Assembly: GCF_056746865.1 (NCBI RefSeq)
Contig: NZ_CM163382.1
Length of the DNA: 64,000 bases
Strand: one strand, 5' to 3'
Within the stretch, counting starts at the first letter, position 1; each line of letters opens with the position of its first letter. The translations under genes and the position numbers were made by a program. This document shows, in pieces, positions 2,424 to 15,503 of the stretch. The notes under the pieces were generated by a model. The model worked only from the letters and a program-made list of their open reading frames with translations, was not told where the DNA came from and ran no database searches.

Positions 2424-5075
2424 TTAGCGACAGATTGCTGTCTGCTGGTTCAGTAAGGTACCAGGAGAAACTTCAGGAAGCTTGTACTCGACAATACAGT
2501 TTGAGTTTTTATCTTTGCCCCATGAAACCTGTAATTTCCCTGACTGTGGAAGTCCAGTCAGATAAACCTGACCGTTTTCCGCGACAATGCTGCCATTTTT
2601 ATTCTTTCCGTGAGTGACAATTGCACCGAATGGAACGCTCTTATTACCGTACTTCAACGTCATTAATACTTTCCCGCCGATTTGTGCATTAAATGTTGCT
2701 CTGGCAATAGCACCGTGAGTTGGGATGACAGTGACCACGGTTTCATCCAGTTCAACATTATCTGCAAGGGAATTCGCGTTAAGAGCGACACGATTTTCTC
2801 TATATTCTGTCGCAAATGGTAATATGGCATAGCCACGCCAGTCGGTATGAATACCGGTCTGGTTCTCTATTTTGACATTATCAGCGCCAGGAGCCTTAAC
2901 CAGAACCATTGTGTCGCCCAGCGGCTGTCCAAAGGTGATGCCATCAGCATGAGCAATAATGCCACCACTCATTCCGTAATAAATCTGGCTGCTGTCACCA
3001 CTCCGACTGTAACCGACATTCGTATTACCGTAAGCTCCACGATAATTAAGAGAACTGTAACCACTGGTGCCAGACGATGTATTACCCCCGTGGGTGTTAC
3101 CGACCTGAACACTATAATTCAGGTTATTATCCGGCAGCAGAGTGCCATAAACTCCCGATAGATTGGTCATGCCGCCTTTCAAATCGTTTGACATACTGTA
3201 ACTGGCGTTTGAATTACGAAATGCCGACTGACTGTCTGTACGCATCCAATGACTGAAGGGAACATTAAGCGTAAAAGCAAGTAAATGATCCCGATCGTTT
3301 TGCCATATATTATTGGAATAGCTGTAATTCAGCGAAGTCGTAATATCACCAAACGGCACATTTAATCCAAATGATATTTGCTGGTCGCTGCGTGACGTGT
3401 TCCAGTAACTTTGGCGACTGGCACTAAAAAATGTCGTACCGTAATTTCCAAGCTGCTGAGAGATGCTTATTTGTTCCTGACCACGCTTACTGTAGAACAG
3501 ATTAAAATAATCAATAAATTGTGTCTGCTCGTTGCTGTCTCCGGTAGGAGGCTTGACGGTGTAACCACTCATTCGACTGTAGGCACTGTCGGATAAGTTA
3601 TAAAAACCTTGCGTAGAATAGCGATATCCTGCGACCTGGATATTGGTTCCCGTCTGGTAGAAGGATTTGCTGTAGACGGATTTAATCGATTGCCCGCTGT
3701 GACGGGTGCCATCTGCAAGTGTCGTATTGGCCTGCGTGATATCGAAAGAAAAGGCACCAAAAAGTCCTAAATCTTTACCAATACCAAGGTTGAAGGCCTG
3801 ATAATCTTCTGCAATTTGCATTCCGCCATAAGGTGTCCAGTTTCCTTCCAGTCCATGCATCAAGCTACCTTGTATGAACTTGGGGGAGCTTTGCAGGTTA
3901 TTTCCACTACGATATTCCCCCATGGCAAGCGCATAACGCGTATATCCAGCACGTTGGAGAACCGGAACAGACGAATAAGGAACATATAATGTCTGAATAC
4001 TGCCGTCTGCCTCTTTTATGGTTACTTGCAGATCACCACCATTGGCCGCAGAGTTGATATCATCAATAGTAAAAGGGCCGGGTGGGACAGTAGTCTGATA
4101 AACATCGTATCCATTCTGTTTTACACTCACTTGTGCGGTGCCGCGGGCAATACCATGAATCACCGGAGCGAAACCATGTTGGCTATCGGGCAACATCGCT
4201 TCTGTTGAATTTATTTTGAGGCCACGAAAGTTCACACTATCAAAAATATCGCCATCGGTATAACTATCACCTACCGTTAAGCGTGAGCGTAAGGGAATAA
4301 TGTCACGTTCAGCCGACGTATTGATATGCTGCCATTTATTGCTGTCAGATGAATTGCTACTCCCACTGTTATAACTCCACGTTGAGTTATCGCGCAGTCG
4401 CCAACTACCAATGTTGATGCCACTCTGTAAATTCAAATATGCATAGTTGGATTTTCCTGCATTATGGTTACTACGATTATTAATAGAATTACCATTAAAA
4501 CTATAGTTTAGAAGCCCAGCATTTATTCCTTCTTCCCACAGATCAGGAGAAACATAGCCGCGAGCCATTCTGCCAACATAAATTTGCGGAACGGAGAGTG
4601 ACAGATGTTGCTGACCAACATCAAACTCAGTTGATGCGTCGGCCAAACGATCCTGAAGTGGTGTGCATGCGCTGTTGTCCGGCACATGTTTTTCTGCCGA
4701 ATGTTCTTTATTGTCTAATAACGCTGATTTTTTTATGCCAAGACTGACTAGAAGATCTGTACTCAGGCATGGGATGAGATCTGCGTTATTATCATCTGCA
4801 ATAAAAGTAATATCCCGACTAGTAATAAATTCGTCGTTCAAATAAATGTCGACCCGATATGTACCAGGTGGTGCCTCGCGTCCCTTAGTAAAGGCGGATA
4901 AATCGACAGATTCAGCAAGATCATTGCTTAAAAACCGTGGATTAAAATAATACTCTGCGTCAACGGGAAATACCGCAGTTGCTAAGCCAAGGGCAATGGT
5001 AAGCCGTGCAAAGCGAGGCAGTAGTAACACCTGATGCATACGATATGCCTTAAATGCGGCACGAAAGGCTGTCAT
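2424..5075 (-). CDS. ydeT: fimbrial outer-membrane usher (FimD/PapC family), apparently full length
   Basis: 883-aa ORF, Asn/Ser/Tyr/Gly-rich beta-barrel composition and usher length; follows chaperone gene; true start may be internal Met 13. Confidence 0.85.
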   Translation of the reverse strand: MTAFRAAFKAYRMHQVLLLPRFARLTIALGLATAVFPVDAEYYFNPRFLSNDLAESVDLSAFTKGREAPPGTYRVDIYLNDEFITSRDITFIADDNNADLIPCLSTDLLVSLGIKKSALLDNKEHSAEKHVPDNSACTPLQDRLADASTEFDVGQQHLSLSVPQIYVGRMARGYVSPDLWEEGINAGLLNYSFNGNSINNRSNHNAGKSNYAYLNLQSGINIGSWRLRDNSTWSYNSGSSNSSDSNKWQHINTSAERDIIPLRSRLTVGDSYTDGDIFDSVNFRGLKINSTEAMLPDSQHGFAPVIHGIARGTAQVSVKQNGYDVYQTTVPPGPFTIDDINSAANGGDLQVTIKEADGSIQTLYVPYSSVPVLQRAGYTRYALAMGEYRSGNNLQSSPKFIQGSLMHGLEGNWTPYGGMQIAEDYQAFNLGIGKDLGLFGAFSFDITQANTTLADGTRHSGQSIKSVYSKSFYQTGTNIQVAGYRYSTQGFYNLSDSAYSRMSGYTVKPPTGDSNEQTQFIDYFNLFYSKRGQEQISISQQLGNYGTTFFSASRQSYWNTSRSDQQISFGLNVPFGDITTSLNYSYSNNIWQNDRDHLLAFTLNVPFSHWMRTDSQSAFRNSNASYSMSNDLKGGMTNLSGVYGTLLPDNNLNYSVQVGNTHGGNTSSGTSGYSSLNYRGAYGNTNVGYSRSGDSSQIYYGMSGGIIAHADGITFGQPLGDTMVLVKAPGADNVKIENQTGIHTDWRGYAILPFATEYRENRVALNANSLADNVELDETVVTVIPTHGAIARATFNAQIGGKVLMTLKYGNKSVPFGAIVTHGKNKNGSIVAENGQVYLTGLPQSGKLQVSWGKDKNSNCIVEYKLPEVSPGTLLNQQTAICR

Positions 5076-5836: not shown

Positions 5837-6189
5837 TCTCCATGTGTTAAGAGGATAAGCGGGAAAACCGTTACATCAGACAATCAGTAAATATTGCTAA
5901 TACATTGGCGACTCGCCGGGTTTCCAGACTTAATGCGTTTGTAATAAATGTTGGTTCTCTTTTAATAGGAAAACCTTGCTACAAAGTAAATATTTTAAAT
6001 AACAGTAAGTTTAACTACTGTTGTTTATTGATCGTTTAGATATTATGTGATTTTTTCATACCGCTCCAAAACACAAACTATTCCTCATTAATAATGAGAT
6101 GAACATTGGTGAATTGCTCGGGTGTGCGTAGCCATGCCACACACACCCTGTTTCAATTTCAGATGACGTATAGCCACCTTAAGATTGAA

Positions 6190-6753
6190 TTATAGATATT
6201 GAACTTTGAAGGTCGCATCAGCGTTTGCAGTACCAGCTACTGACTGCCCGAGAGCAATATATCGAGCCTGGAACGGCAATATATTCGTGCCATCAATCAA
6301 GTCAGTTTTAGCACTAAAAGTGGCACCATCAAGTATTAATACCTCACCCGTACGGTCCAAAATTTGAATACCGACATTTTGGGCAGAGCCTGCCGCTGAA
6401 CTCTGCAGCGCTAACGTATCGTCATTACTGGTGACAGTAGTACCCAGGAATGCAACAGCTGCATTACTGGAAACATTGGTATCACAATCATTCAGCTTGA
6501 TATTGAAGCCAACGGCGGAGCTGAGGTCACCCGCTTTAGCCAGACGAGAAGAACGGACCTGACCCAGCTCAACCGTTTGGTTCATTGATTCTGAATCAAT
6601 CGCACAAGCGGCATTTACCACTTCACCTTTAAAATGAATAACACCGCCATTAACAGTGGTCGTTACTGATTCATCACCCTCGGCTGCGCTTACCGCAGCA
6701 GACGACATCGCCAACACAGAAACGACAATCATACCGACATGTTTGAGTTTCAT
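6190..6753 (-). CDS. major fimbrial subunit (FimA-like pilin)
   Basis: 187 aa from ATG at 6753 with GGAG RBS; signal peptide ending SAAVSA; C-terminus ATFKVQYL resembles type-1 pilin termini; first gene of the operon. Confidence 0.75.
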
Positions 6754-7186
6754 AATTCTCCAAAATTTATATTTAAGTAGCTTAATAAAGAAAGTTAACA
6801 ATCAAGTCATTCTGTTATTGCTTATAAAACAAGAATCATTCTTGATGGGATATTGCCCTGAGAATATAGTTTCCAGGGTTATTACATTTCACGAAGAACG
6901 ATAATATCTTTAAATTACAAGGACACCTAATCACAACAAGTTTATTGCAGCACTTGTTGTAGAGAGTATTTGCAAAGACATTTTATGTCGCTAAATAACA
7001 TTACGATTTCATTATGCATGTTATTTATAAACAGCGACTAAACAGAATATTATTGCGAACAAGGGAAGTGTCAGGAAAGGTCAAGAGTTACTAATGGTTT
7101 ATATGGCTAAAAATCATTAGCTATGGTTAATGTTTGCTTTCTGAAACTAACGCCAAATTGCTCTAACCAGATAAATGCAGGGTTTA

Positions 7187-7441
7187 TTAAAGCTGATCGA
7201 CAGACTTTCTTAACCTGGCAATATCTCTCTTAGGTGACTCTCCAAACATCCGCGAATATTCCCGACTGAAATGGGATAAGCTTTCGTAACCGACAGCATA
7301 GGCTGCAGTGGTGACATCGTAATGTTCATTCAGCATCAGTCGCCTGGCTTCATTGAGGCGTAGCCATTTCTGATACCGGAGTGGACTCATTCCCGCAAGC
7401 TGTCTGAAGTGTTGATGGAAAGAGGGTGTGTTCATTTGCAC
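7187..7441 (-). pseudogene. yneL: C-terminal fragment of AraC-family transcriptional regulator (HTH only)
   Basis: 84-aa ORF carrying only the second AraC HTH (…YESLSHFSREYSRMFGESP…); no in-frame N-terminal domain upstream. Confidence 0.6.
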
Positions 7442-7721
7442 GCGGTTTGCCAGCCTGACTCTTCAACGCAGGGAAGATGCGGCAAACGGCAAACCTGCAT
7501 ACCAGCCAGCCTATATCCGGTATGCACAGGCCAATCATGAAAGAGGAGAGGCTTTATGTTCTGGAACCCTGAAGTAATAACGACGACCGTAAAATCGCTT
7601 CGCATCACTCAAATTCCATTTAACTATTCTGGGTTTGAGGGATATACATAATTGACTTCAGCACCAGAAACAGCATAACAAACTGTTTTAAATGGATATT
7701 AATCAAATGACGATTCAAACT

Positions 7722-7756
7722 CACAGTTATGAACTCAGTTTTGGTTCATAACTGTG
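7722..7756. repeat. perfect 13-bp inverted repeat CACAGTTATGAAC / GTTCATAACTGTG with 9-nt spacer
   Basis: Read directly from sequence; a related palindrome GTTCATGAAC-TGTT occurs at 7797-7810. Confidence 0.6.
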
Positions 7757-7855
7757 TTAAACGCTGTCCATAAATCACTCGATGTCACGTCTGTTGGTTC
7801 ATGAACTGTTCGTTCTAATGTTGTGATGTGCGTCAGGTTTTGGTGTTCAGTAATA

Positions 7856-8659
7856 TTACGTTTTACTCGATGAGCGATTGATTAATACCTCTCCGACAAC
7901 AGGAGCAGCGGTAAATGCGTTTGGCCAGCCAGCGTAAAACGCGGCTTGGGTAACGATCTCCCCAGCTTCCTCAGCAGAAAGTCCATTATCCATCGCTCTG
8001 TTAAGGTGATAGCCAATCTGCGCGCTCTGTCCAGATGCGATTAACGCGCTGACCGTAATCAGGCTTCTATCACGGGGGGTTAGCGCGGGTCTTTGCCAGA
8101 GATCCAGGAACAGTGGGTCAGCAGTAAATTTAACCAAGCCTGGAGATATTCGGCCAACATTTTTTTCCACTGTCTCTGAACGCTGCTTTTCTGCTTCCTG
8201 ATTGAGAGGAAGCAGGTCCGGAGAAGCGTCAGGAAGCGCATCTGGCGTGACGCCACGAGTTTCAAATACTGCTTTGGTCACGCTGACGGCTGACATTGCA
8301 TTTGGCCAACCTGAGTAGAACGCCAGATGGGTAATGATTTCTGATAATTCCGCTGGCGTCACGCCGCTATCGAGAGCGACGTCAATATAGTGCTTAAGCT
8401 CGGCAGGCTGGTTGCGGGCAATCAGCATGGCGACGGTCACCACACTACGATCCCTCGGTGAGAGGGCGTCGCGTGTCCACAGATCTTCAGTAATAGCTTC
8501 GCGACCAAAGCGCGCGAGAGCCGGTGAGACGGAACGAATATCAGCTTCCGAAATCGCTGACGGTTCTATTTTCATCATAGCTTTACCTCTTGTTTCCTCA
8601 GCATTGGCAAAATCAGAAATAACAAGCGACATAGCCGCTGCTGCAAGTACGCTTTTCAT
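7856..8659 (-). CDS. secreted tandem carboxymuconolactone-decarboxylase (CMD / AhpD-like) family protein
   Basis: 267-aa ORF with signal peptide; two repeats each carrying the CMD-type motif (ITHLAFYSGWPNA and VTQAAFYAGWPNA). Confidence 0.65.
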   Translation of the reverse strand: MKSVLAAAAMSLVISDFANAEETRGKAMMKIEPSAISEADIRSVSPALARFGREAITEDLWTRDALSPRDRSVVTVAMLIARNQPAELKHYIDVALDSGVTPAELSEIITHLAFYSGWPNAMSAVSVTKAVFETRGVTPDALPDASPDLLPLNQEAEKQRSETVEKNVGRISPGLVKFTADPLFLDLWQRPALTPRDRSLITVSALIASGQSAQIGYHLNRAMDNGLSAEEAGEIVTQAAFYAGWPNAFTAAPVVGEVLINRSSSKT

Positions 8660-8674
8660 GTTAATCCTTACTGG

Positions 8675-9400
8675 TCAACGTTGCGGCTCCTGTTTGATTC
8701 CGCCTTTGTTACGAAGAAATACCGGTTTTACCGGGATTGCGTCCTTCCTGGCGCTCATATGCGCCGTTTGCCTGAGGTAATCCAGGAAGTGCAGCGTTTG
8801 TCGGTGCAGTTGATAATCCTCCTCACTGGCGTAAATCTCATAGAAATACCAGCGTTTTGGAGTCTCTGAATCTGTACCGGCATACATGGCTAACACGCCT
8901 TTCTCTACTTTGAGCGACTCGACCATTTCAGGAAGGACGATGTTTCTAAATTCGCTCTGAAATTCAGGCTTTACTTCGACGATCACCAGATTATTGATAG
9001 TTCGTTCATTCGGTATGATGTGTTTGTCGCCCAGAAACTGTGGCTCCAGGGTAATTTTCTTCTTACTGTCAATAATGTCAGGTGCACGAGCAGCGAATGC
9101 TTTGTATGGGGCGGCATTGAGATGTTTGCGATAAGCACGCTCATTTTCATAGAGTTCGAACATGAATGCCTGACCTGAATTGTCGCTGCGTTGCAGGGCA
9201 TACATCGCCAGTGTACCTGCTTCATGATCAACCGAAGCGGAAATCGTCTGTCTGGCCACGTCTGCAAAGTCGTTGTCCCGATCGGGTCTGATGCCGAGCT
9301 CGAAGATATTCATCTCCGGCTTATTCGGCGCGTCCGGTTTTGTTGCAAAGACAGGGCTGCTTATTAGCATGCAAATTAAAAGCATAAAAGTCTTTTTCAC
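8675..9400 (-). CDS. secreted protein with two ABM (antibiotic-biosynthesis-monooxygenase-like) domains
   Basis: 241-aa ORF with signal peptide (MKKTFMLLICMLISSPVFA); two ~100-aa repeats with ABM-like pattern (AMYALQRSD…FMFELYENE / AMYAGTDSE…YFYEIYASE). Confidence 0.5.
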   Translation of the reverse strand: MKKTFMLLICMLISSPVFATKPDAPNKPEMNIFELGIRPDRDNDFADVARQTISASVDHEAGTLAMYALQRSDNSGQAFMFELYENERAYRKHLNAAPYKAFAARAPDIIDSKKKITLEPQFLGDKHIIPNERTINNLVIVEVKPEFQSEFRNIVLPEMVESLKVEKGVLAMYAGTDSETPKRWYFYEIYASEEDYQLHRQTLHFLDYLRQTAHMSARKDAIPVKPVFLRNKGGIKQEPQR

Positions 9401-9515
9401 GATGATCTTTTTACTGACATTACTGTTTAAGACGTTCGATCAACTGGTGCTGGTAAGAACGTAACCGACCGCTACTGGCGCTCTCAAAGACGAGAGGAGG
9501 AAAAGTGAATAAGGG

Positions 9516-10535
9516 CTATCGCATCCAGACCTGCTTAACATCTTTCGTTTGCGGCGTATTTTGCGCCATGATCCCCGTCAGAACATGCGGCTGGTAGGTT
9601 TCTTCCAGAAACTGAATTTCCTCCGGACTTAGTTGAAGATTTACTGCGTTTACCGCGCCATCGACATGAGCTTTTTTTGTAGCCCCTACGACAGGTGATG
9701 TGACTTTTGTCAGCAGCCAAGCGAGAGATATTTCCGTCATTGACACCAGATGGCGTTCGGCCAGTTCGGCTACACGCTCAATAATGCTGCGATCCTGTTC
9801 AGCCGTGCTGTCATATTTTCCACGCGCATAGTCATCCTCTGTGGCTCGCCGTGTATAGCCTTCTTTACGAGAGAGGCGGCCGCTGGCCAGCGCGCTATAG
9901 GGGGTCATTGCGATATTATCCTCAGTGCACAGGCCGAAGAGCTCCCGTTCATCTTCGCGCATAATTAGATTGTAGTGGCTCTGTACGGAAACAAAGGGCG
10001 TCAGCCCTTCGCGTTCAGCAAGGGCGTTCGCCTTCGCCAGCTGCCAGGCATAGCAGTTTGAAATACCAACAGCTCGTACTTTGCCAGCAGTAACAGCGGT
10101 ATGTAACGCTTCAAGCACGTCGATAATGGGCGTGTTGTAATCCCAGATGTGGTAGATGTAGAGGTCGATATAGTCCATCCCCAGATTCTTCAGGCTCTGG
10201 TCAAGGGATTGAGCGATTGCCTCTTTTCCGCTGATCCCTCCGGCAATTTGTGCGGGGGTTCGCGGCAGAAACTTGGTGGCCAGGACGATATCATCGCGTT
10301 TCGCCATCTCCCGTAATGCCCGGCCAACGTATCGCTCACTGGAGCCATTCTGGTAGGCTATAGCGGTATCGTAAAAGTTGATGCCCTTTTCAAGGCCATA
10401 GCGAATGATGTCGCGGCTTGCTGTTTCGTCCAGCGTCCAGCTATGCTGACCCGTCGACGGATCGCCAAACCCCATGCATCCCATGCAGATGCGGGAAACA
10501 AGTAAGTCACTTTTACCGAGCCGGGTATACTGCAT
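9516..10535 (-). CDS. aldo-keto reductase family oxidoreductase
   Basis: 339-aa ORF; N-terminus MQYTRLGKSDLLVSRICMGCMGFG and overall pattern typical of AKRs (Tas/YajO-like). Confidence 0.8.
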   Translation of the reverse strand: MQYTRLGKSDLLVSRICMGCMGFGDPSTGQHSWTLDETASRDIIRYGLEKGINFYDTAIAYQNGSSERYVGRALREMAKRDDIVLATKFLPRTPAQIAGGISGKEAIAQSLDQSLKNLGMDYIDLYIYHIWDYNTPIIDVLEALHTAVTAGKVRAVGISNCYAWQLAKANALAEREGLTPFVSVQSHYNLIMREDERELFGLCTEDNIAMTPYSALASGRLSRKEGYTRRATEDDYARGKYDSTAEQDRSIIERVAELAERHLVSMTEISLAWLLTKVTSPVVGATKKAHVDGAVNAVNLQLSPEEIQFLEETYQPHVLTGIMAQNTPQTKDVKQVWMR

Positions 10536-10537
10536 TG

Positions 10538-11110
10538 TTATTCTCCCTCTGGATTATTCACGACGGAATTGAGCAGTTCGACAAGCCTTGAAGCGTGTTC
10601 CCGGGCAAGCGTTTTTTGCTGCGCGATTTTGTCGGCATCCCGGTCGGCATAGCTGATACCGCAGGTATAAACCGGCGCCAGCAGCTCAAGATTGCACAGC
10701 CTTGCCGTGGTTTCGAACGGAATAAGATACTCTTCAATGGTATGGCCAAAGAAACTGTCGACGGTATAGAGCTCCTCTGGCGCTCCCGTTGTAAAGGAGA
10801 GGATCAGCTTTTTACCGCCCAGTTTCGCCGTTGAGCCATGCGCGAAGCCGTGAACAAAGACCTCGTCCAGCCATTTTTTCATTAATCCTGGCAGCCCATA
10901 CCAGGAAAAAGGGAACTGCCAGACAATCACATCGGCCCTGAGCAGGCTTTCCTGCTCCGCCGCGATGTTGAATTTGCCATCCGGATAGAGCCTGTCCAGA
11001 CGACGAATCTCAACATCAGGAAGGGCGGTCTCCACTTCATCAAGAATAGTGGCATTGGCGACGGAATGGGTAAGCTCAGGATGACCTGAAATAACAAGGA
11101 TATTTTTCAT
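10538..11110 (-). CDS. flavodoxin-like NAD(P)H:quinone oxidoreductase family protein
   Basis: 190-aa ORF beginning MKNILVISGHP…, resembles Flavodoxin_2 / KefG / MdaB-type quinone reductases; 2-bp gap to upstream AKR gene. Confidence 0.65.
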   Translation of the reverse strand: MKNILVISGHPELTHSVANATILDEVETALPDVEIRRLDRLYPDGKFNIAAEQESLLRADVIVWQFPFSWYGLPGLMKKWLDEVFVHGFAHGSTAKLGGKKLILSFTTGAPEELYTVDSFFGHTIEEYLIPFETTARLCNLELLAPVYTCGISYADRDADKIAQQKTLAREHASRLVELLNSVVNNPEGE

Positions 11111-11260
11111 TTCAATCAGTTAAACATCTTTGGTGAATATTAAATCCAGTATAGAGTGACAACATTATTTTTTTAGAGCAGTAAAGGCTCATTCACTTTT
11201 AGGCAAAAACTAATAATTGTCGGCTGATCACAATGTGCTCAGTCATCATGAAACGGTGAA

Positions 11261-11938
11261 CTAAACCGTGATGCCCAGTAAACGTTCTGCATTGCGAAAC
11301 GCGATGGCCTCTTTTTCAGCCTTGTTGACGGGCAGACTGTCTATAAAGGTTTTTACACCGTCCAGGGTCTGATAGGGATAATCGACGGAGAACAGGATCC
11401 TTTCAGCACCCATTAACGCGTAGATAAACTGGAAGTGCGGCAGTGTTAGCATATGACGGGGTAACGTAAACGTGTTCCTGGAAGGTTCTCGTTAGCGTGC
11501 GTGACAGACCCGTTGCAGCCAGTGGCAGGCTGTCATCAAGACGCTGGAGCCAGAAGGGTAACATCTCACCCCAGTGGCCACTGATTACCTGCAAGTGGGG
11601 ATATTTATCAAATGCACCCGATAACATCAGCCGCAACAAATGGATCCCCGCTTCGTGATGCCAGCCCCAGGCAAACATAGAAAGCCTGGAGTTGACCTCT
11701 GCGCTGAAGCCCGTGAAGTAGGCCTGCTGTACGCTTTTAAGCGGTAACCCGGGATGAAGATAGAGTGGCACATTCAGTTTATTAAAGCGGGAAAGCAGGG
11801 AGTCGGTCAGGATTATGACCATCAGCGACGGTTTTCCCCCAGTCGCCAAGGAAAGGTGCCTGCTCAAGCGCAACAGGCATACACGCTCGCCCTAACTCGC
11901 TGTCGAGATAATTTTCTTCGAGGCAAATGATTTTCATA
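11261..11938 (-). pseudogene. amidohydrolase-family gene disrupted by at least two frameshifts
   Basis: Three consecutive reading frames carry pieces: MKIICLEENYL… (from ATG 11938), then …ISGHWGEMLPFWLQRLDDS…, then …FSVDYPYQTLDG…; metal-dependent amidohydrolase-like motifs but no single intact frame. Confidence 0.5.
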
Positions 11939-12039
11939 TTCTCACCATTCATACAAAGCAGTAAAAGTGATACAGATTAGAATCACCCGGAACAGCCCGT
12001 TCGTGTGTGTCATTCATGACAGTCTGTTCCGGACGGGCT

Positions 12040-12987
12040 TTACACCATCGGTTTTTCCCAGGCGCCTCGTGTATCCACTCTGGTCTCTGCGGCGAGTTGT
12101 TCCAGCAGGATGATTTCCTCATCGCGTAACTGGATGTCTGAAGCGCAGGCGGCGTCCAGAACGTGATGGACTTTAGTCGCACCAACGAGGGGAAGGGTAC
12201 CTTTCGCAATAGCCCATGCGATGGCTATCTGTGCCACGCTGGCATTCCTTTCGGCTCCCATTTTTTTCATGGCGGCGGTTAGTCTTTCTATCTGCGGCAG
12301 TACTGCGTTATAACTTTCGGCCCGGCCACTCCCGGCAGGCATGGGATGATTTGAATCATAACGACCACTGAGCGCGCCTTGCTCCAGGACCATGTAAGCA
12401 AAGAACGTGATGTTATTTTGTCGGCAATAATCAAGGATCCCGGCCTCTTCAGAAGCGCGATAGAGCAGGCTGTAGTGATTTTGTACTGCACTGAGGGAAT
12501 AACCGGAAGCGTTAAGGATTTCATTGGCGCGTCTGATTTGTGCCAGATTGTGGTTGGAAACACCTACGCGTTTTACCTTACCGCTTTGTAAAAGTGGGAT
12601 CAGTCCTGGTGTCCATTTTTCGACGTCGAGGGGATTATGGATCCAGTAGATATCAATCGCGTCCACGCCCAGGCGCCCAAGGCTGGCCTCAAGCATATCG
12701 CTGACAGGCTGCGCAGACTGCTTGTCCGCAATCTGCGGCGTGAATTTGGTGGATAAAATTATGTTCTCGCGGGGAAACTGACGGACTAATGCTCCCAGCG
12801 CAGTCTCGGAACTCCCCATACCATATACTGCTGCGGTATCCCAGAGATTGAGGCCCTTACTCATGGCCGCAGTGAACACTTCTGCCATCTGAGTATCAGA
12901 AAGATGATTACCAAAGACGGTGTCGCCGCCGGCAAAGCCTGTGCCCCAGGACCATGTACCTAGTGCGACTGGAGGTAGTGTTTTCAT
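12040..12987 (-). CDS. aldo-keto reductase family oxidoreductase (second copy)
   Basis: 315-aa ORF with AKR-like N-terminus and overall pattern. Confidence 0.75.
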   Translation of the reverse strand: MKTLPPVALGTWSWGTGFAGGDTVFGNHLSDTQMAEVFTAAMSKGLNLWDTAAVYGMGSSETALGALVRQFPRENIILSTKFTPQIADKQSAQPVSDMLEASLGRLGVDAIDIYWIHNPLDVEKWTPGLIPLLQSGKVKRVGVSNHNLAQIRRANEILNASGYSLSAVQNHYSLLYRASEEAGILDYCRQNNITFFAYMVLEQGALSGRYDSNHPMPAGSGRAESYNAVLPQIERLTAAMKKMGAERNASVAQIAIAWAIAKGTLPLVGATKVHHVLDAACASDIQLRDEEIILLEQLAAETRVDTRGAWEKPMV

Positions 12988-13060
12988 ATTCAGCTCCTGA
13001 AAAAAGGCCGGATCGTGGCTGACTTAAACCGGCCAAGTAAGGTGAGTAACGATGAATTAA

Positions 13061-13762
13061 TTAAGCTGTCCGGCGGAGTGCATTTAACAGCGCCACACCA
13101 ACCCCATGTGCTGAAGCGGGATTCTGCCCCGTGATAAGGCGATCGTCGGTAACCACGTTTTCAGACCAGTTTGGAGCTTCATGATAAAGCGCACCATGCT
13201 CGCGAAGTGCGGTTTCAAGCAGGAAGGGAACCACATCTGTTGTGTGAACTTCTTCCTCTTCCTTGTTGGTAAAGGCCGCCACATTTTTCCCTTTTATCAG
13301 GTATTCGCCGCTACTGAGTTTTGCGTCAACCAATGCCGCAGGCCCGTGGCAGACGGCTGAGACAATCCCATCACTTTCATACACTTCGCGGATAATACGC
13401 TGGGCATCCTGATTATCACGGAAATCCCACATGGTCCCATGACCACCTGCAAAGAAAACTGCGCTGTAATCGGCACCTTTCAGCTCGGATAACGCAGGTG
13501 TTGTTGCCAGGCGCTGCTGAAAATCGGTTTCGTTCCAGTACCAGGCGTTAACAGGGTCGCTGAGGTCAAATCCATCCACCGGTGGCTGCCCCCCGCGAAT
13601 ACTGGCTATTGTTGTTTTTATTCCGGCATCTTCCAGTACTTTCAGCGGATGAGTCAGCTCGGCCAGGAAAAAACCGGTTGGTACACCGGATGCGCCTTTA
13701 ATCGGATGGCTGGAAACGACACATAGCACTGGTTTATATGCAGGTTTCATATCGGTCCTCAC
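13061..13762 (-). CDS. DJ-1/PfpI (class I glutamine-amidotransferase-like) family protein
   Basis: 233-aa ORF with nucleophile-elbow-like motif AVCHGP; GAGG RBS before ATG 13762; start overlaps upstream gene stop by 4 bp (ATGA). Confidence 0.65.
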   Translation of the reverse strand: MRTDMKPAYKPVLCVVSSHPIKGASGVPTGFFLAELTHPLKVLEDAGIKTTIASIRGGQPPVDGFDLSDPVNAWYWNETDFQQRLATTPALSELKGADYSAVFFAGGHGTMWDFRDNQDAQRIIREVYESDGIVSAVCHGPAALVDAKLSSGEYLIKGKNVAAFTNKEEEEVHTTDVVPFLLETALREHGALYHEAPNWSENVVTDDRLITGQNPASAHGVGVALLNALRRTA

Positions 13763-14070
13763 TCTTTATTTTTAAATTCATCGGCGAAGAGATTTTCCCA
13801 GTTAATAAAGGAGCCAAGCGGTATACACTCGAAGCTTAGTAAGCCTGCTTTTGCCAACGGGAATTCGGCCATAACGTTCATCGCTTCATCGACAGAGTCA
13901 CATTCAAGAAAAATAGCGACGCCAGGTCTGTCCTGACGGAAGTAGATGTCGCGGATGAAGCCTGATTTATACAATCCCCAGGCGTGCAGCGCTTCAGCGT
14001 TGAGGTGCGGAGCATATTTCTCCAGCGATGCTCCAGGGGCAGGGATATCCAGACATAAAATTCGCATCAT
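13759..14070 (-). CDS. small muconolactone-isomerase-like protein
   Basis: 103-aa ORF; resemblance to muconolactone isomerase pattern is weak and by eye only; first gene of the co-oriented cluster. Confidence 0.35.
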   Translation of the reverse strand: MMRILCLDIPAPGASLEKYAPHLNAEALHAWGLYKSGFIRDIYFRQDRPGVAIFLECDSVDEAMNVMAEFPLAKAGLLSFECIPLGSFINWENLFADEFKNKE

Positions 14071-14206
14071 AGTCTCCTGAACTCAGGTCGTAGTAGAAAG
14101 AGACTAAAGTATAAGAGGCGTATTTCAGGAAGATTAGAGGGTCATTGACTTAAGCATTTTTAGACTGTACTTAATAATCAGGCGAGAATTGCTTTAGGAA
14201 AACATT

Positions 14207-15106
14207 ATGAATAACGCTCTTTATAACCAGATTCGCATCTTCCAGAGCATTGCGCGGGAGGGCAATATTTCGGCAGCCGCAAGGAAACTGGAAATTACGC
14301 CTCCCTCCGTCAGCAATGCACTAAAGCTGCTGGAAGAGTATATCGGTCATCCGCTTTTTGTGCGTACGACCCGCCGTATAGAGCTGACGGAAACCGGTCA
14401 ATTATTGCTGGAACAGACCGCTGCGGCGGTGGAGTCGCTGGAAAACTCACTTGAAAGCATTCGCGACCAGCATCAGGAGCCCTCAGGGATGGTGCGAATT
14501 ACGCTCTCGCGTTTTGCCTACCTGTTAATTCTTAAGCCTGCGATGGCAGAATTCTGTCAGCAATATCCGGGTATACAGTTAGAAATTTCGGTCTACGACG
14601 GTACCGTGAATATCATCAAAGAGCGTTTTGATCTGGGGATCCGTTTTGGCGATATTCTTGAGGGAGGGGTGGTGGCCCGACCGTTAATGAAACCGTTTCG
14701 TGAAGGATTATATGCATCCTCAGCGTATCTCTCCCGACATGGAACGCCTGAAGTGCCGGCAGATCTCTGTCATCACCAGCTGATTGGTTACCGTTTTATC
14801 ACCAACAACCGCATCCTTCCGCTGCTCCTGAACGATCGCGGTGAGCAGTTGACCGTTGAGATGCCGGGGCAGTTAATCAGCAACGATATTGACGTTATGG
14901 CAGACGGGATCCGTAACGGGCTGGGAATTGGGCGCTTGTTTGAGCCTGTCTGGCAGTTACAGCCGGACAGGGAGCGCTTTATTCCGGTGATGGAGAGCTA
15001 CTGGAAAACCTACCCGCCAGTGTATCTCTATTACCCCAAAAACGCGGGTAAAACGAAAAGAGTGAAGGCCCTGATTGATTTTCTGATATCCACTACGGGG
15101 CGATAA
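14207..15106 (+). CDS. LysR-family transcriptional regulator, divergent from the cluster
   Basis: 299-aa ORF with N-terminal HTH (…ISAAARKLEITPPSVSNALKLLEEYIGHPLFVRTTRRIELTETG…) and LysR substrate-binding-domain length. Confidence 0.85.
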   Translation: MNNALYNQIRIFQSIAREGNISAAARKLEITPPSVSNALKLLEEYIGHPLFVRTTRRIELTETGQLLLEQTAAAVESLENSLESIRDQHQEPSGMVRITLSRFAYLLILKPAMAEFCQQYPGIQLEISVYDGTVNIIKERFDLGIRFGDILEGGVVARPLMKPFREGLYASSAYLSRHGTPEVPADLCHHQLIGYRFITNNRILPLLLNDRGEQLTVEMPGQLISNDIDVMADGIRNGLGIGRLFEPVWQLQPDRERFIPVMESYWKTYPPVYLYYPKNAGKTKRVKALIDFLISTTGR

Positions 15107-15503
15107 AGACGATAACGCCTCGTTCGGTATGGAGATGCATCGAATGGCATTGTGAGTTTTTTTTCACAGATGGGCGTAATCGTCAGTGGATTTTACATAC
15201 AAGGATAGCGCCCACATACTGACATCATTAATTAACGTTGGGTGAGGTTTACCGGGGGGAGGGGAAAGCGAACCAGGAGATGGAGGTGGCCAATCTGGTA
15301 CGAACCGCCGCGTAGCTTGCACGGCAAAAGCTGCTGACTGATTCATCAGTTAAGCTACTGAAAGAGCGGAACACATGAACTTAAGAACAAACCCACCATA
15401 TTTAACATAATATACATTATGCGCACCAACATAAACCAAGGGAGAATCCAGTCGTTGGCGGTCATGATTGTCCTGCTCATTAACAACGGCCAAACCCCAT
15501 ATC

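Follow-up and report, generated by a model that had tools for sequence, protein, structure and literature searches.

Conserved palindromes in the non-coding end of an E. coli genomic island as putative docking sites for GInt-type recombination proteins

In a 64-kb stretch of E. coli DNA (hereafter the window), which is 100% identical to strain 118UI, we find that a cluster of palindromes belongs to a conserved, AT-rich end of a 7.8-kb island. From the comparison of sequences, we consider these palindromes to be probably accessory docking sites for recombination proteins of the GInt type, which would now be relics in an island that has no recombinase operon. The island end itself is best read as part of a GInt-type integrative island (Genomic Island with three Integrases, Tn6571 family). 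That GInts exist and that they carry defence genes in E. coli is already known from published work; what the present analysis adds, for one divergent lineage, are terminal inverted repeats, a defined integration target (attB) and a repeated dyad motif.

The palindromes and their setting

The gene order in the window runs from ydeP through a fimbrial cluster (ydeQRS-usher-chaperone-fimA) to a yneL remnant, the palindrome region, a block of redox and hydrolase genes, a LysR regulator and hipA-hipB. The AraC-type remnant is the C-terminal part of yneL (7187-7441, minus strand), and the gene for a CMD-family protein ends at 7856, likewise on the minus strand, which agrees with a sequence-only reading of this DNA that had placed the palindromes between a truncated AraC-type gene and the end of the CMD gene. 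Comparison with E. coli 042 and K-12 sets the left boundary of the island (7625-15406), which is inserted between the yneL remnant and hipA, at 7624/7625. The palindromes sit 100-180 bp inside this boundary, which bears out their earlier assignment to the left edge of an accessory region. The hipA/ydeT interval is E. coli defence hotspot #20, which was detected in 783 genomes and is occupied in 62 (PMC10121019, S1 Table).

According to the annotation of the identical strain 118UI, the cargo (7856-15333) lies on the minus strand and encodes a CMD-family protein, a quinol monooxygenase, two aldo/keto reductases, an NAD(P)H oxidoreductase, a broken amidohydrolase, a DJ-1/PfpI-type amidotransferase and one hypothetical protein, while the LysR regulator of the block is on the plus strand. 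The same annotation contains no recombinase genes in this cargo, and a tblastn search of the 64-kb window with the four Gin-like proteins of related elements, described below, gave no match.

The first palindrome is an inverted repeat (7722-7756) whose arms, CACAGTTATGAAC (7722-7734) and GTTCATAACTGTG (7744-7756), are 100% complementary over 13 nt and enclose a 9-nt spacer, TCAGTTTTG. No other perfect inverted repeat in the window reaches 13 bp with a spacer of at most 20 nt, and the mean number in 100 shuffles is 0.02. A second, 10-bp perfect palindrome, GTTCATGAAC, occupies 7797-7806 and is directly followed by TGTT (to 7810). In addition, TTGGTTCAT is present in two exact copies (7741-7749 and 7794-7802), and the sole difference between the two copies of the longer sequence, TTGGTTCAT(-/G)AACTGT, is a 1-nt indel. 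The perfect repeat, the second palindrome with its TGTT and the half-site common to both had all been pointed out in the sequence-only reading, and all three descriptions hold.

We resolve these palindromes into three left-end copies of a dyad motif with the consensus (G)TTCATGAA(C), none of which is assigned to a strand: S1 (GTTATGAAC, 7726-7734) and S2 (GTTCATAAC, 7744-7752), which stand in mirror orientation and make up the 13-bp inverted repeat, and S3 (7797-7806), which is the perfect palindrome. The motif is concentrated at this place. The 9- and 10-mers of the GTTCAT(G)AAC type number four in the whole 64 kb, three of them inside 80 bp at the palindromes, and the half-site GTTCAT/ATGAAC occurs five times in the 350 bp of both island ends versus 0.26 expected (Poisson P = 8e-6); the density of the degenerate motif across the window is ~0.1 per 200 bp.

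In terms of folding, S1 and S2 form a hairpin of -18.8 and -20 kcal/mol on the two strands (z of -4.9 and -5.3; RNA-parameter energies), whereas S3 has no fold of its own (z of +0.33 and -0.46). A scan around the palindromes for sigma-70 promoter-like or terminator-like sites found none, with nothing above shuffles, in line with the earlier remarks that no promoter is expected at this place and that the palindromes lack a U tract. We rejected a rho-independent terminator, as only 5 of the 13 stem pairs are G-C, no T run follows the stem and the scan was negative. Searches with Rfam 15 covariance models gave no match at E <= 1 in positions 6000-10000 and none at the gathering score in two related loci. 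A small ORF was likewise rejected, as none runs across the motifs in the 231-bp end (7625-7855) and the lineages are separated by 1-nt indels.

Island ends, target site and relatives

The left end of the island is a conserved AT-rich stretch of 231 bp (7625-7855; this and the following features are given on the plus strand), with 63.6% AT versus 49.8% for the cargo, and it is the end distal to the recombinase genes, corresponding to the 3' end of GInts. It is preceded by the left direct repeat ATTTAAC (7618-7624), the core of attL, which contains the predicted 6-bp crossover region, TTTAAC, is invariant in our alignments and is present in one copy in empty sites. The end opens with a terminal inverted repeat, TATTCTGGGTTTGA (7625-7638), a putative core-type recombinase-binding arm that matches the right termini and contains an invariant TTCTGGG. 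Further in, a conserved block, ACTGTTTTAAAT (7682-7693), has a mean column conservation of ~0.9 in an alignment of eight lineages. On the other side of the cargo lies a remnant of the recombinase-proximal end (15334-15400), which matches the right ends in 165 plasmid records at ~90% identity and includes ACTGATTCATCAGT (15337-15350), a motif copy that we call R1 (ACATGAACT, 15373-15381) and the right terminal inverted repeat CAAACCCACCATA (15388-15400). This remnant is followed by the right direct repeat ATTTAAC (15400-15406), the core of attR, and by the host-side half of the target, ATAATATACATTATGCGCAC (15407-15426), which is also found in the empty sites of 042, K-12 and eight Enterobacter plasmids. 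The direct repeats that flank the island are imperfect, reading CCATTTAAC (7616-7624) and CCATATTTAAC (15396-15406).

The terminal inverted repeats are 13-14 bp long and match at 14/14 positions in a Chimaeribacter element and at 11/13 in the window, and the left terminus of the window forms a perfect 14-bp inverted match with the right terminus of the Chimaeribacter element. Homology among the elements starts sharply at ATTTAAC|TATTCTGGGTTTGAGG, beside eight unrelated left flanks. The other end is also conserved, over ~73-110 bp that finish with ...CAAACCCA(CC/GA)ATATTTAAC; the window remnant aligns with the right ends of gin-bearing elements, and this homology stops ~73 bp from the terminus. 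An excised circle would read CAAACCCACCATA-TTTAAC-TATTCTGGGTTTG at its predicted junction. Given the inverted termini and the direct repeats, this junction would have two inverted arms with 6 bp between them, arranged as in the core site of a tyrosine recombinase.

The integration target (attB) has the sequence ATTTAACATAATATACATTATGCGCAC. In the window, it is represented by ATTTAAC-ATAAnnnnCATTAnGCGCAC, between the yneL remnant and hipA; the empty site of E. coli 042 reads ...CAAATTCCATTTAACATAATATACATTATGCGCAC..., and the window instead carries 7.8 kb after ATTTAAC. The empty sites of E. coli 042, K-12 and eight Enterobacter plasmids all have a single ATTTAAC and the conserved right half-site. 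For the plasmids, we joined the two flanks of an Enterobacter plasmid insertion into a synthetic empty site and used it as a query; eight related plasmids without the island contain it uninterrupted, at 96-98% identity. These plasmid sites read ATTTAAC-ATAAATAGCATTAAGCG(C/T)AC, compared with ATTTAAC-ATAATATACATTATGCGCAC in E. coli. The Chimaeribacter and K. michiganensis plasmid insertions have a flank similar to the E. coli/Enterobacter target, and those in Vibrio and Aliivibrio are flanked by ATTTAACATAA. Because empty sites keep the conserved right flank and insertions elsewhere show similar sequence, this flank is part of the target and not of the element.

A search with 7625-7855 returned full-length matches of ~72% identity in E. 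coli chromosomes and enterobacterial plasmids, beside unrelated cargo. Matches of 60-80% identity occur in 62 other E. coli records, and in the three E. coli that we examined (VTB96935v, Ec1115 and CD45), the element occupies the same hipA/yneL site. Plasmid matches come from five genera besides E. coli (Klebsiella, Enterobacter, Raoultella, Salmonella and Chimaeribacter), and one Serratia record also matches the 231-bp end, at a coverage that was not stated. Vibrio and Aliivibrio plasmids carry more divergent left ends, which only local BLAST and alignment recovered. A genome scan with the exact hairpin pattern recovered only four species, the pattern being too strict to sample diversity, and the left terminus had no matches in viral contigs. 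The left-end match is annotated as "none" in every case, and the genes after it differ. Cargo beside related ends includes a restriction enzyme with TIGR02391 together with Hachiman, AVAST type 1, an ABC-three-component system and Gabija-like genes.

In full-length relatives from an Enterobacter plasmid and from E. coli Ec1115, the latter again at the hipA site, four co-oriented genes encoding proteins of 507, 556, 845 and 167 aa adjoin the right end. On the basis of weak integrase hits (PHROG integrase, 3.5e-9; NF041502 "integrase_1", 2.6e-24; and sub-threshold Pfam Phage_integrase), proteins 1 and 2 are taken to be two divergent tyrosine recombinases, whereas the same profile searches gave no integrase signal for proteins 3 (845 aa) and 4 (167 aa). 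No useful match was obtained for the Gin-like proteins against Pfam at default thresholds or against PDB sequences. The first three proteins appear collinear with an integrase trio of a Pseudomonas plasmid (4e-21, 3e-27 and 2e-16, E-values that come from tiny databases). The O157 Sakai ginC-ginD block is listed among GInts (PMC10214605, Additional file 10), and against ECs3512/3511/3510 of this strain we obtain 7.5e-8 for A, 0.005 for B and 5e-7 for C (phmmer 3.7e-9), again from tiny databases, with best matches that are position-specific. Links that run through the Pseudomonas trio are stronger than these direct Sakai matches. The gene order in relatives is thus two integrase-like genes, a third gene matching proteins at the GinC position and a small fourth gene. 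As a set, the four proteins appear to be only distantly similar to published GInt proteins, with no detectable similarity for the fourth (167 aa).

The window island is a derivative without the recombinase operon and not an autonomous GInt member, because tblastn and annotation show no operon while full-length relatives with the same ends have one. Islands on plasmids of Chimaeribacter (AVAST) and K. michiganensis (Hachiman and metal resistance) are also without gin genes, and their breakpoints differ from those of the window. In E. cloacae, a mini-element of 1.3 kb has a single MFS gene between the left end and the right terminus; a second element adjoins it, and the composite of the two is found with four different flanks. 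The comparison shows repeated loss of the recombinase genes with the ends kept.

A repeated motif at fixed offsets in both ends

We aligned the left ends of eight lineages, which have a mean column identity of 70%. The sole invariant runs of at least four columns are ATTTAAC, which is the crossover, TTCTGGG, which is the terminal repeat, and three runs that coincide with the cores of the palindromes: ATGAAC (7729-7734), TTCAT (7745-7749) and TTCATGA (7798-7804), the last of these within S3. The motif copies lie ~103, 121 and 174 bp from the terminus, and these offsets are held within 2 bp from E. coli to Vibrio despite heavy divergence of the sequence between them. In Vibrio and Aliivibrio, both arms read TTCATGAA, which is itself an 8-bp palindrome, while the enterobacterial S1 and S2 are each one base short of it, in mirror fashion, which accounts for the perfect 13-bp repeat. 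Even a divergent E. cloacae left end, which represents a third end type, again has three TTCAT(G)AA copies.

The motif recurs in the recombinase-proximal end of gin-bearing elements, at offsets of ~27, 104 and 137 bp that are also conserved from E. coli to Vibrio. The copy at ~27 is present in all lineages, with CATGAA kept ~21-27 bp from the terminus, and the window copy, R1, has one mismatch (TTCATGT). The copy at ~137 overlaps the start of ginA, and a copy just upstream is also present. The motif is therefore repeated, differs from the core arms and keeps its distances in both arms. It accompanies the Gin proteins across bacterial orders, whereas the cargo and the rest of the end sequence vary. 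The genome-wide and cross-strain comparison that had been suggested as a check on the palindromes gave a divided result: the motif is not a dispersed repeat, being confined to one place per genome, and it is strongly conserved between strains, species and replicons.

Because the motif differs from the core arms, keeps fixed distances from the crossover and repeats in the recombinase-proximal end, we propose that its copies are putative accessory, arm-type sites for one Gin protein. Such copies would mark the two ends, help to assemble the recombination complex and probably also autoregulate the operon. In the window, the sites would be relics left after deletion of the operon; since the island has no gin genes, nothing would act on them there, and they would be inactive unless Gin proteins were supplied in trans. 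Since S3 cannot fold, at least this copy must act as duplex DNA, and as the right-end copies are equally unable to fold, recognition of the duplex is the simpler model.

The sequence-only reading had offered protein-binding sites, a junction scar or a structured RNA element as explanations. It is the binding sites that are favoured by the fixed offsets in eight diverged lineages, the presence of the motif in both ends and the one palindrome without a loop, which suits a duplex. A chance or neutral origin, as a scar of the rearrangement that truncated the AraC-type gene, would suit a non-coding region beside a decayed gene with a variable junction. We find it hardly credible, given that the only such inverted repeat in 64 kb would have to have arisen against an expectation of 0.02, that the motif blocks are invariant in lineages ~70% identical elsewhere, Vibrio and Aliivibrio plasmids included, and that the repeats are inside the island, in a conserved terminal module of a mobile element, rather than at the yneL breakpoints (7396 and 7624); the related loci are also not recent copies of one sequence. 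A role for S1/S2 as a folded single strand, either as a DNA hairpin in a transposition intermediate (as in attC or SE circles) or as an RNA hairpin that terminates or insulates transcription, is a further candidate reading. The hairpin is stable on both strands, its dyad symmetry is kept in 88.5% of cells versus 23-39% for slid controls, two of its pairs change on both sides in Vibrio lineages, and SEs, which are relatives of GInts, have been proposed to move via a single-stranded circle (PMC10214605). The conservation of dyad symmetry, taken alone, would fit recognition of a folded single strand equally well. However, S3 and the right-end copies carry the same motif and form no hairpin, the pair statistics of S1/S2 are no better than shuffles on most measures, and the outer 3-5 pairs of the stem decay without compensation. 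For an RNA in particular, there is no U tract, terminator-like site or Rfam match, the second palindrome has a folding z near 0, and the orientation of the cargo relative to the end, convergent in the window and divergent elsewhere, leaves no consistent transcript. The structured-RNA option thus fared poorly, and we regard action as a folded strand, of DNA or RNA, as unlikely.

Two further functions have been considered for the dyads. Short perfect dyads are typical of operators for HTH proteins, and the copies here might be bound by a transcription factor at an island-end promoter, whether a Cro/C1-type HTH protein encoded near ginD or a host regulator. Enterobacterial full-length elements do hold two HTH_3 genes, of the Cro/C1 type and near ginD in some relatives, and in one lineage (B), 73 bp separate the end from the start of the first cargo gene, which reads outward from it. 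Yet the Aliivibrio element keeps the motif with no HTH gene annotated beside its gin operon, and the window, Chimaeribacter and K. michiganensis islands keep it without those HTH genes. Promoter-like matches are no commoner than in shuffles, and the variable orientation of the cargo argues against an operator as well, so that we hold this explanation to be rather improbable. Origins of transfer (oriT regions) also contain inverted repeats, which there lie by the nick site, and conjugative plasmids, which could mobilise the island from such an origin, make up 33 of 46 carriers. We give this possibility very little weight: no relaxase or similarity to a known oriT is tied to the element, the same ends are also found in chromosomes and non-mobilisable plasmids, a motif in both ends fits recombination sites better, and GInts are described as non-mobilisable (PMC10214605).

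Several other candidates were rejected on inspection of the ends. Similarity to the XerC/XerD arms of a Xer/dif-like site goes no further than CATAA; Tn7, Mu or IS21-type ends would be of the TG...CA kind with direct subterminal repeats, which these termini are not, and every site has a target duplication of identical sequence; and the order of ACAG...CTGT is wrong for a LexA box. An integron attC site has core-like boxes that fit (ATTTAAC at 7618-7624 and GTTAAAC at 7756-7762), with ATTTAAC conforming to the inverse core RYYYAAC, its complement GTTAAAT to GTTRRRY and an imperfect palindrome nearby. The flanking pairing fails, however, as the sequences by the boxes (TATTCTG... and ...AACTGTG) are not complementary and give no bulged hairpin, the ends are inverted and not direct repeats, and there is no IntI.

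Relation to known elements and significance

GInts make 6-nt staggered cuts and have an AT-rich 3' end of 0.2-0.4 kb, for which the authors could name no recognition features (Bardaji et al. 2017, PMC5385486), and in E. coli hotspots they carry defence cargo (PMC10121019). The elements described here share their tripartite layout, in which a four-gene recombinase operon at one end is followed by variable cargo and then by a short, AT-rich stretch of non-coding DNA (231 bp in this case), as well as their site-specific insertion with short imperfect direct repeats and, as predicted, a 6-nt crossover region. They also share the order of two integrase-like genes, a large protein that is not integrase-like and a small protein, with apparent distant collinear homology for the first three. 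When compared to the Sakai GInt, the differences are in the sizes of the proteins (507/556/845/167 aa in the relatives versus 401/437/543/132 aa), the fourth of which shows no similarity to the published one, and in the absence of the operon from the window copy. Whereas no recognisable feature was reported for the published 3' end, this lineage has terminal inverted repeats and a repeated dyad.

The termini also resemble those of SEs (strand-biased circularizing integrative elements), in which imperfect terminal inverted repeats of 13-19 bp enclose a 6-bp spacer when joined and whose four recombination genes, in the order intA-tfp-intB-srap, code among others for a small auxiliary protein and for a protein that has the tyrosine-recombinase fold but is not catalytic (2023, PMC10214605). 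The likeness extends to the matching of the terminal inverted repeats (14/14 in Chimaeribacter and 11/13 in the window) around a TTTAAC spacer, to target-site specificity and to the number of recombination genes. In the relatives, however, both integrase-like genes come first, in the GInt style, and this difference in gene order rules out SEs, the sister class of GInts.

Our proposal for the motif copies is modelled on the arm-type sites of phage lambda, where the P and P' arms of attP are bound by the N-terminal domain of Int and by Xis, IHF and Fis. As in lambda, each arm has short repeated motifs that are unlike the core arms and lie in non-coding, AT-rich sequence, with fixed spacing and at a distance of tens to ~180 bp from the crossover. 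Unlike in lambda, the motif is palindromic, two of its copies can form a hairpin, and a multi-protein recombinase set takes the place of Int and Xis. In keeping both att ends after loss of the recombination genes, and in the E. cloacae tandem with a second element, the islands without an operon are reminiscent of cis-mobilizable elements (CIMEs) and other non-autonomous derivatives of integrative elements, with the difference that CIMEs derive from ICEs of Firmicutes and that mobilisation of the window island, in trans or in cis, would be hypothetical.

For this lineage, the cis-elements would comprise a 13-14-bp terminal repeat around a 6-bp crossover, an attB of ~27 bp and a dyad at fixed offsets in both ends. 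This account explains why an island at E. coli defence hotspot #20 is "integrase-less", and the 231-bp end together with the ATTTAAC-ATAA...GCGCAC target may serve as annotation markers with which to delimit islands. The new detail is useful to specialists, and the finding is not surprising in principle. GInt-type elements are a recently recognised route by which genes for anti-phage defence, resistance and virulence pass between plasmids and chromosomal hotspots.

The window island, the Chimaeribacter AVAST island, the K. michiganensis Hachiman/metal-resistance island and the E. cloacae 1.3-kb mini-element are examples of islands that have both ends but no gin operon. It is conceivable, though we think it doubtful, that such islands are non-autonomous "mini-GInts", a parasitic class moved in trans by autonomous relatives or by tandem accretion. 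If this were so, they would make up a parasitic layer through which plasmids and chromosomal hotspots exchange defence and metabolic cargo, and the S1/S2 hairpin might be read in a single-stranded intermediate.

Target site and host flanks

On the host side, immediately to the right of where the island is inserted, the window reads ATAATATACATTATGCGCAC (15407-15426). Similar sequence is found in unrelated replicons (L019 1750-1775; L009 34863-34882, from Chimaeribacter; L017 19839-19858), and empty sites contain it as well. It follows from this similarity and from the empty sites that the target recognised by the element is about 27 bp long, with conservation confined to its right half. In E. 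coli, ATAATATACATTATGCGCAC lies approximately 100 bp downstream of hipA.

On the other side of the island, the yneL remnant found in K-12-type strains is cut at position 7396 of the window, and about 125 bp are exchanged for unrelated sequence (window 7397-7522 versus 3296-3410 of the K-12-type locus, L004). Homology between the two restarts at about 7523, right of the replaced stretch. At least two separate rearrangements have thus taken place left of the island. E. coli 042, where the island is absent, has no hipB, and its annotation gives hipA as a truncated pseudogene that is adjoined by an autotransporter pseudogene (L002 4624-5892).

Island interior

Within the window island, the amidohydrolase gene (11261-11937) is probably a pseudogene, as the annotation of strain 118UI, which is identical here, breaks it into three fragments that overlap. 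Directly after the LysR gene lies TGTGAGTTTTTTTTCACA (15150-15170), a short inverted repeat enclosing a run of eight T. The sequence that separates the cargo from the retained right end, in which this repeat falls, occurs in this island only.

Related elements and their cargo

The window cargo of CMD, quinol monooxygenase and aldo-keto reductase genes recurs at 91% identity in an E. sichuanensis contig (L013), where it sits behind the same left end beside a different flank, the two aligned blocks being separated by a gap of about 580 bp. This 4795-bp contig stops short of the right end, beside which any gin genes would lie. In the Aliivibrio wodanis plasmid pAWOD_1, the gin operon is adjoined by a tandem array (L021 14422-27218) in which a unit of about 3.4 kb is repeated four times. 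Every copy has genes for two small proteins as well as for a rolling-circle-type replication protein, an SSB and an HTH regulator.

In a 1.3-kb mini-element of E. cloacae, a single MFS transporter gene is all that lies between the left end and the right terminus (L012 4458-5792). Immediately beyond it comes the end of a second island (L012 5793-6000), which is divergent, has three TTCAT(G)AA copies of its own and carries cargo of the abortive-infection type. Four different sets of flanks surround this composite (L026-L029).

The terminal 70-100 bp of the CMD gene (window 7856-7952) still adjoin the left end in two other elements, those of E. cloacae (L012 4696-4792) and Chimaeribacter (L009 20232-20299), with the rest of the gene gone. 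The persistence of this gene end without its gene suggests that the ancestral element carried CMD and that its cargo was exchanged through deletions or recombination a short way in from its end.
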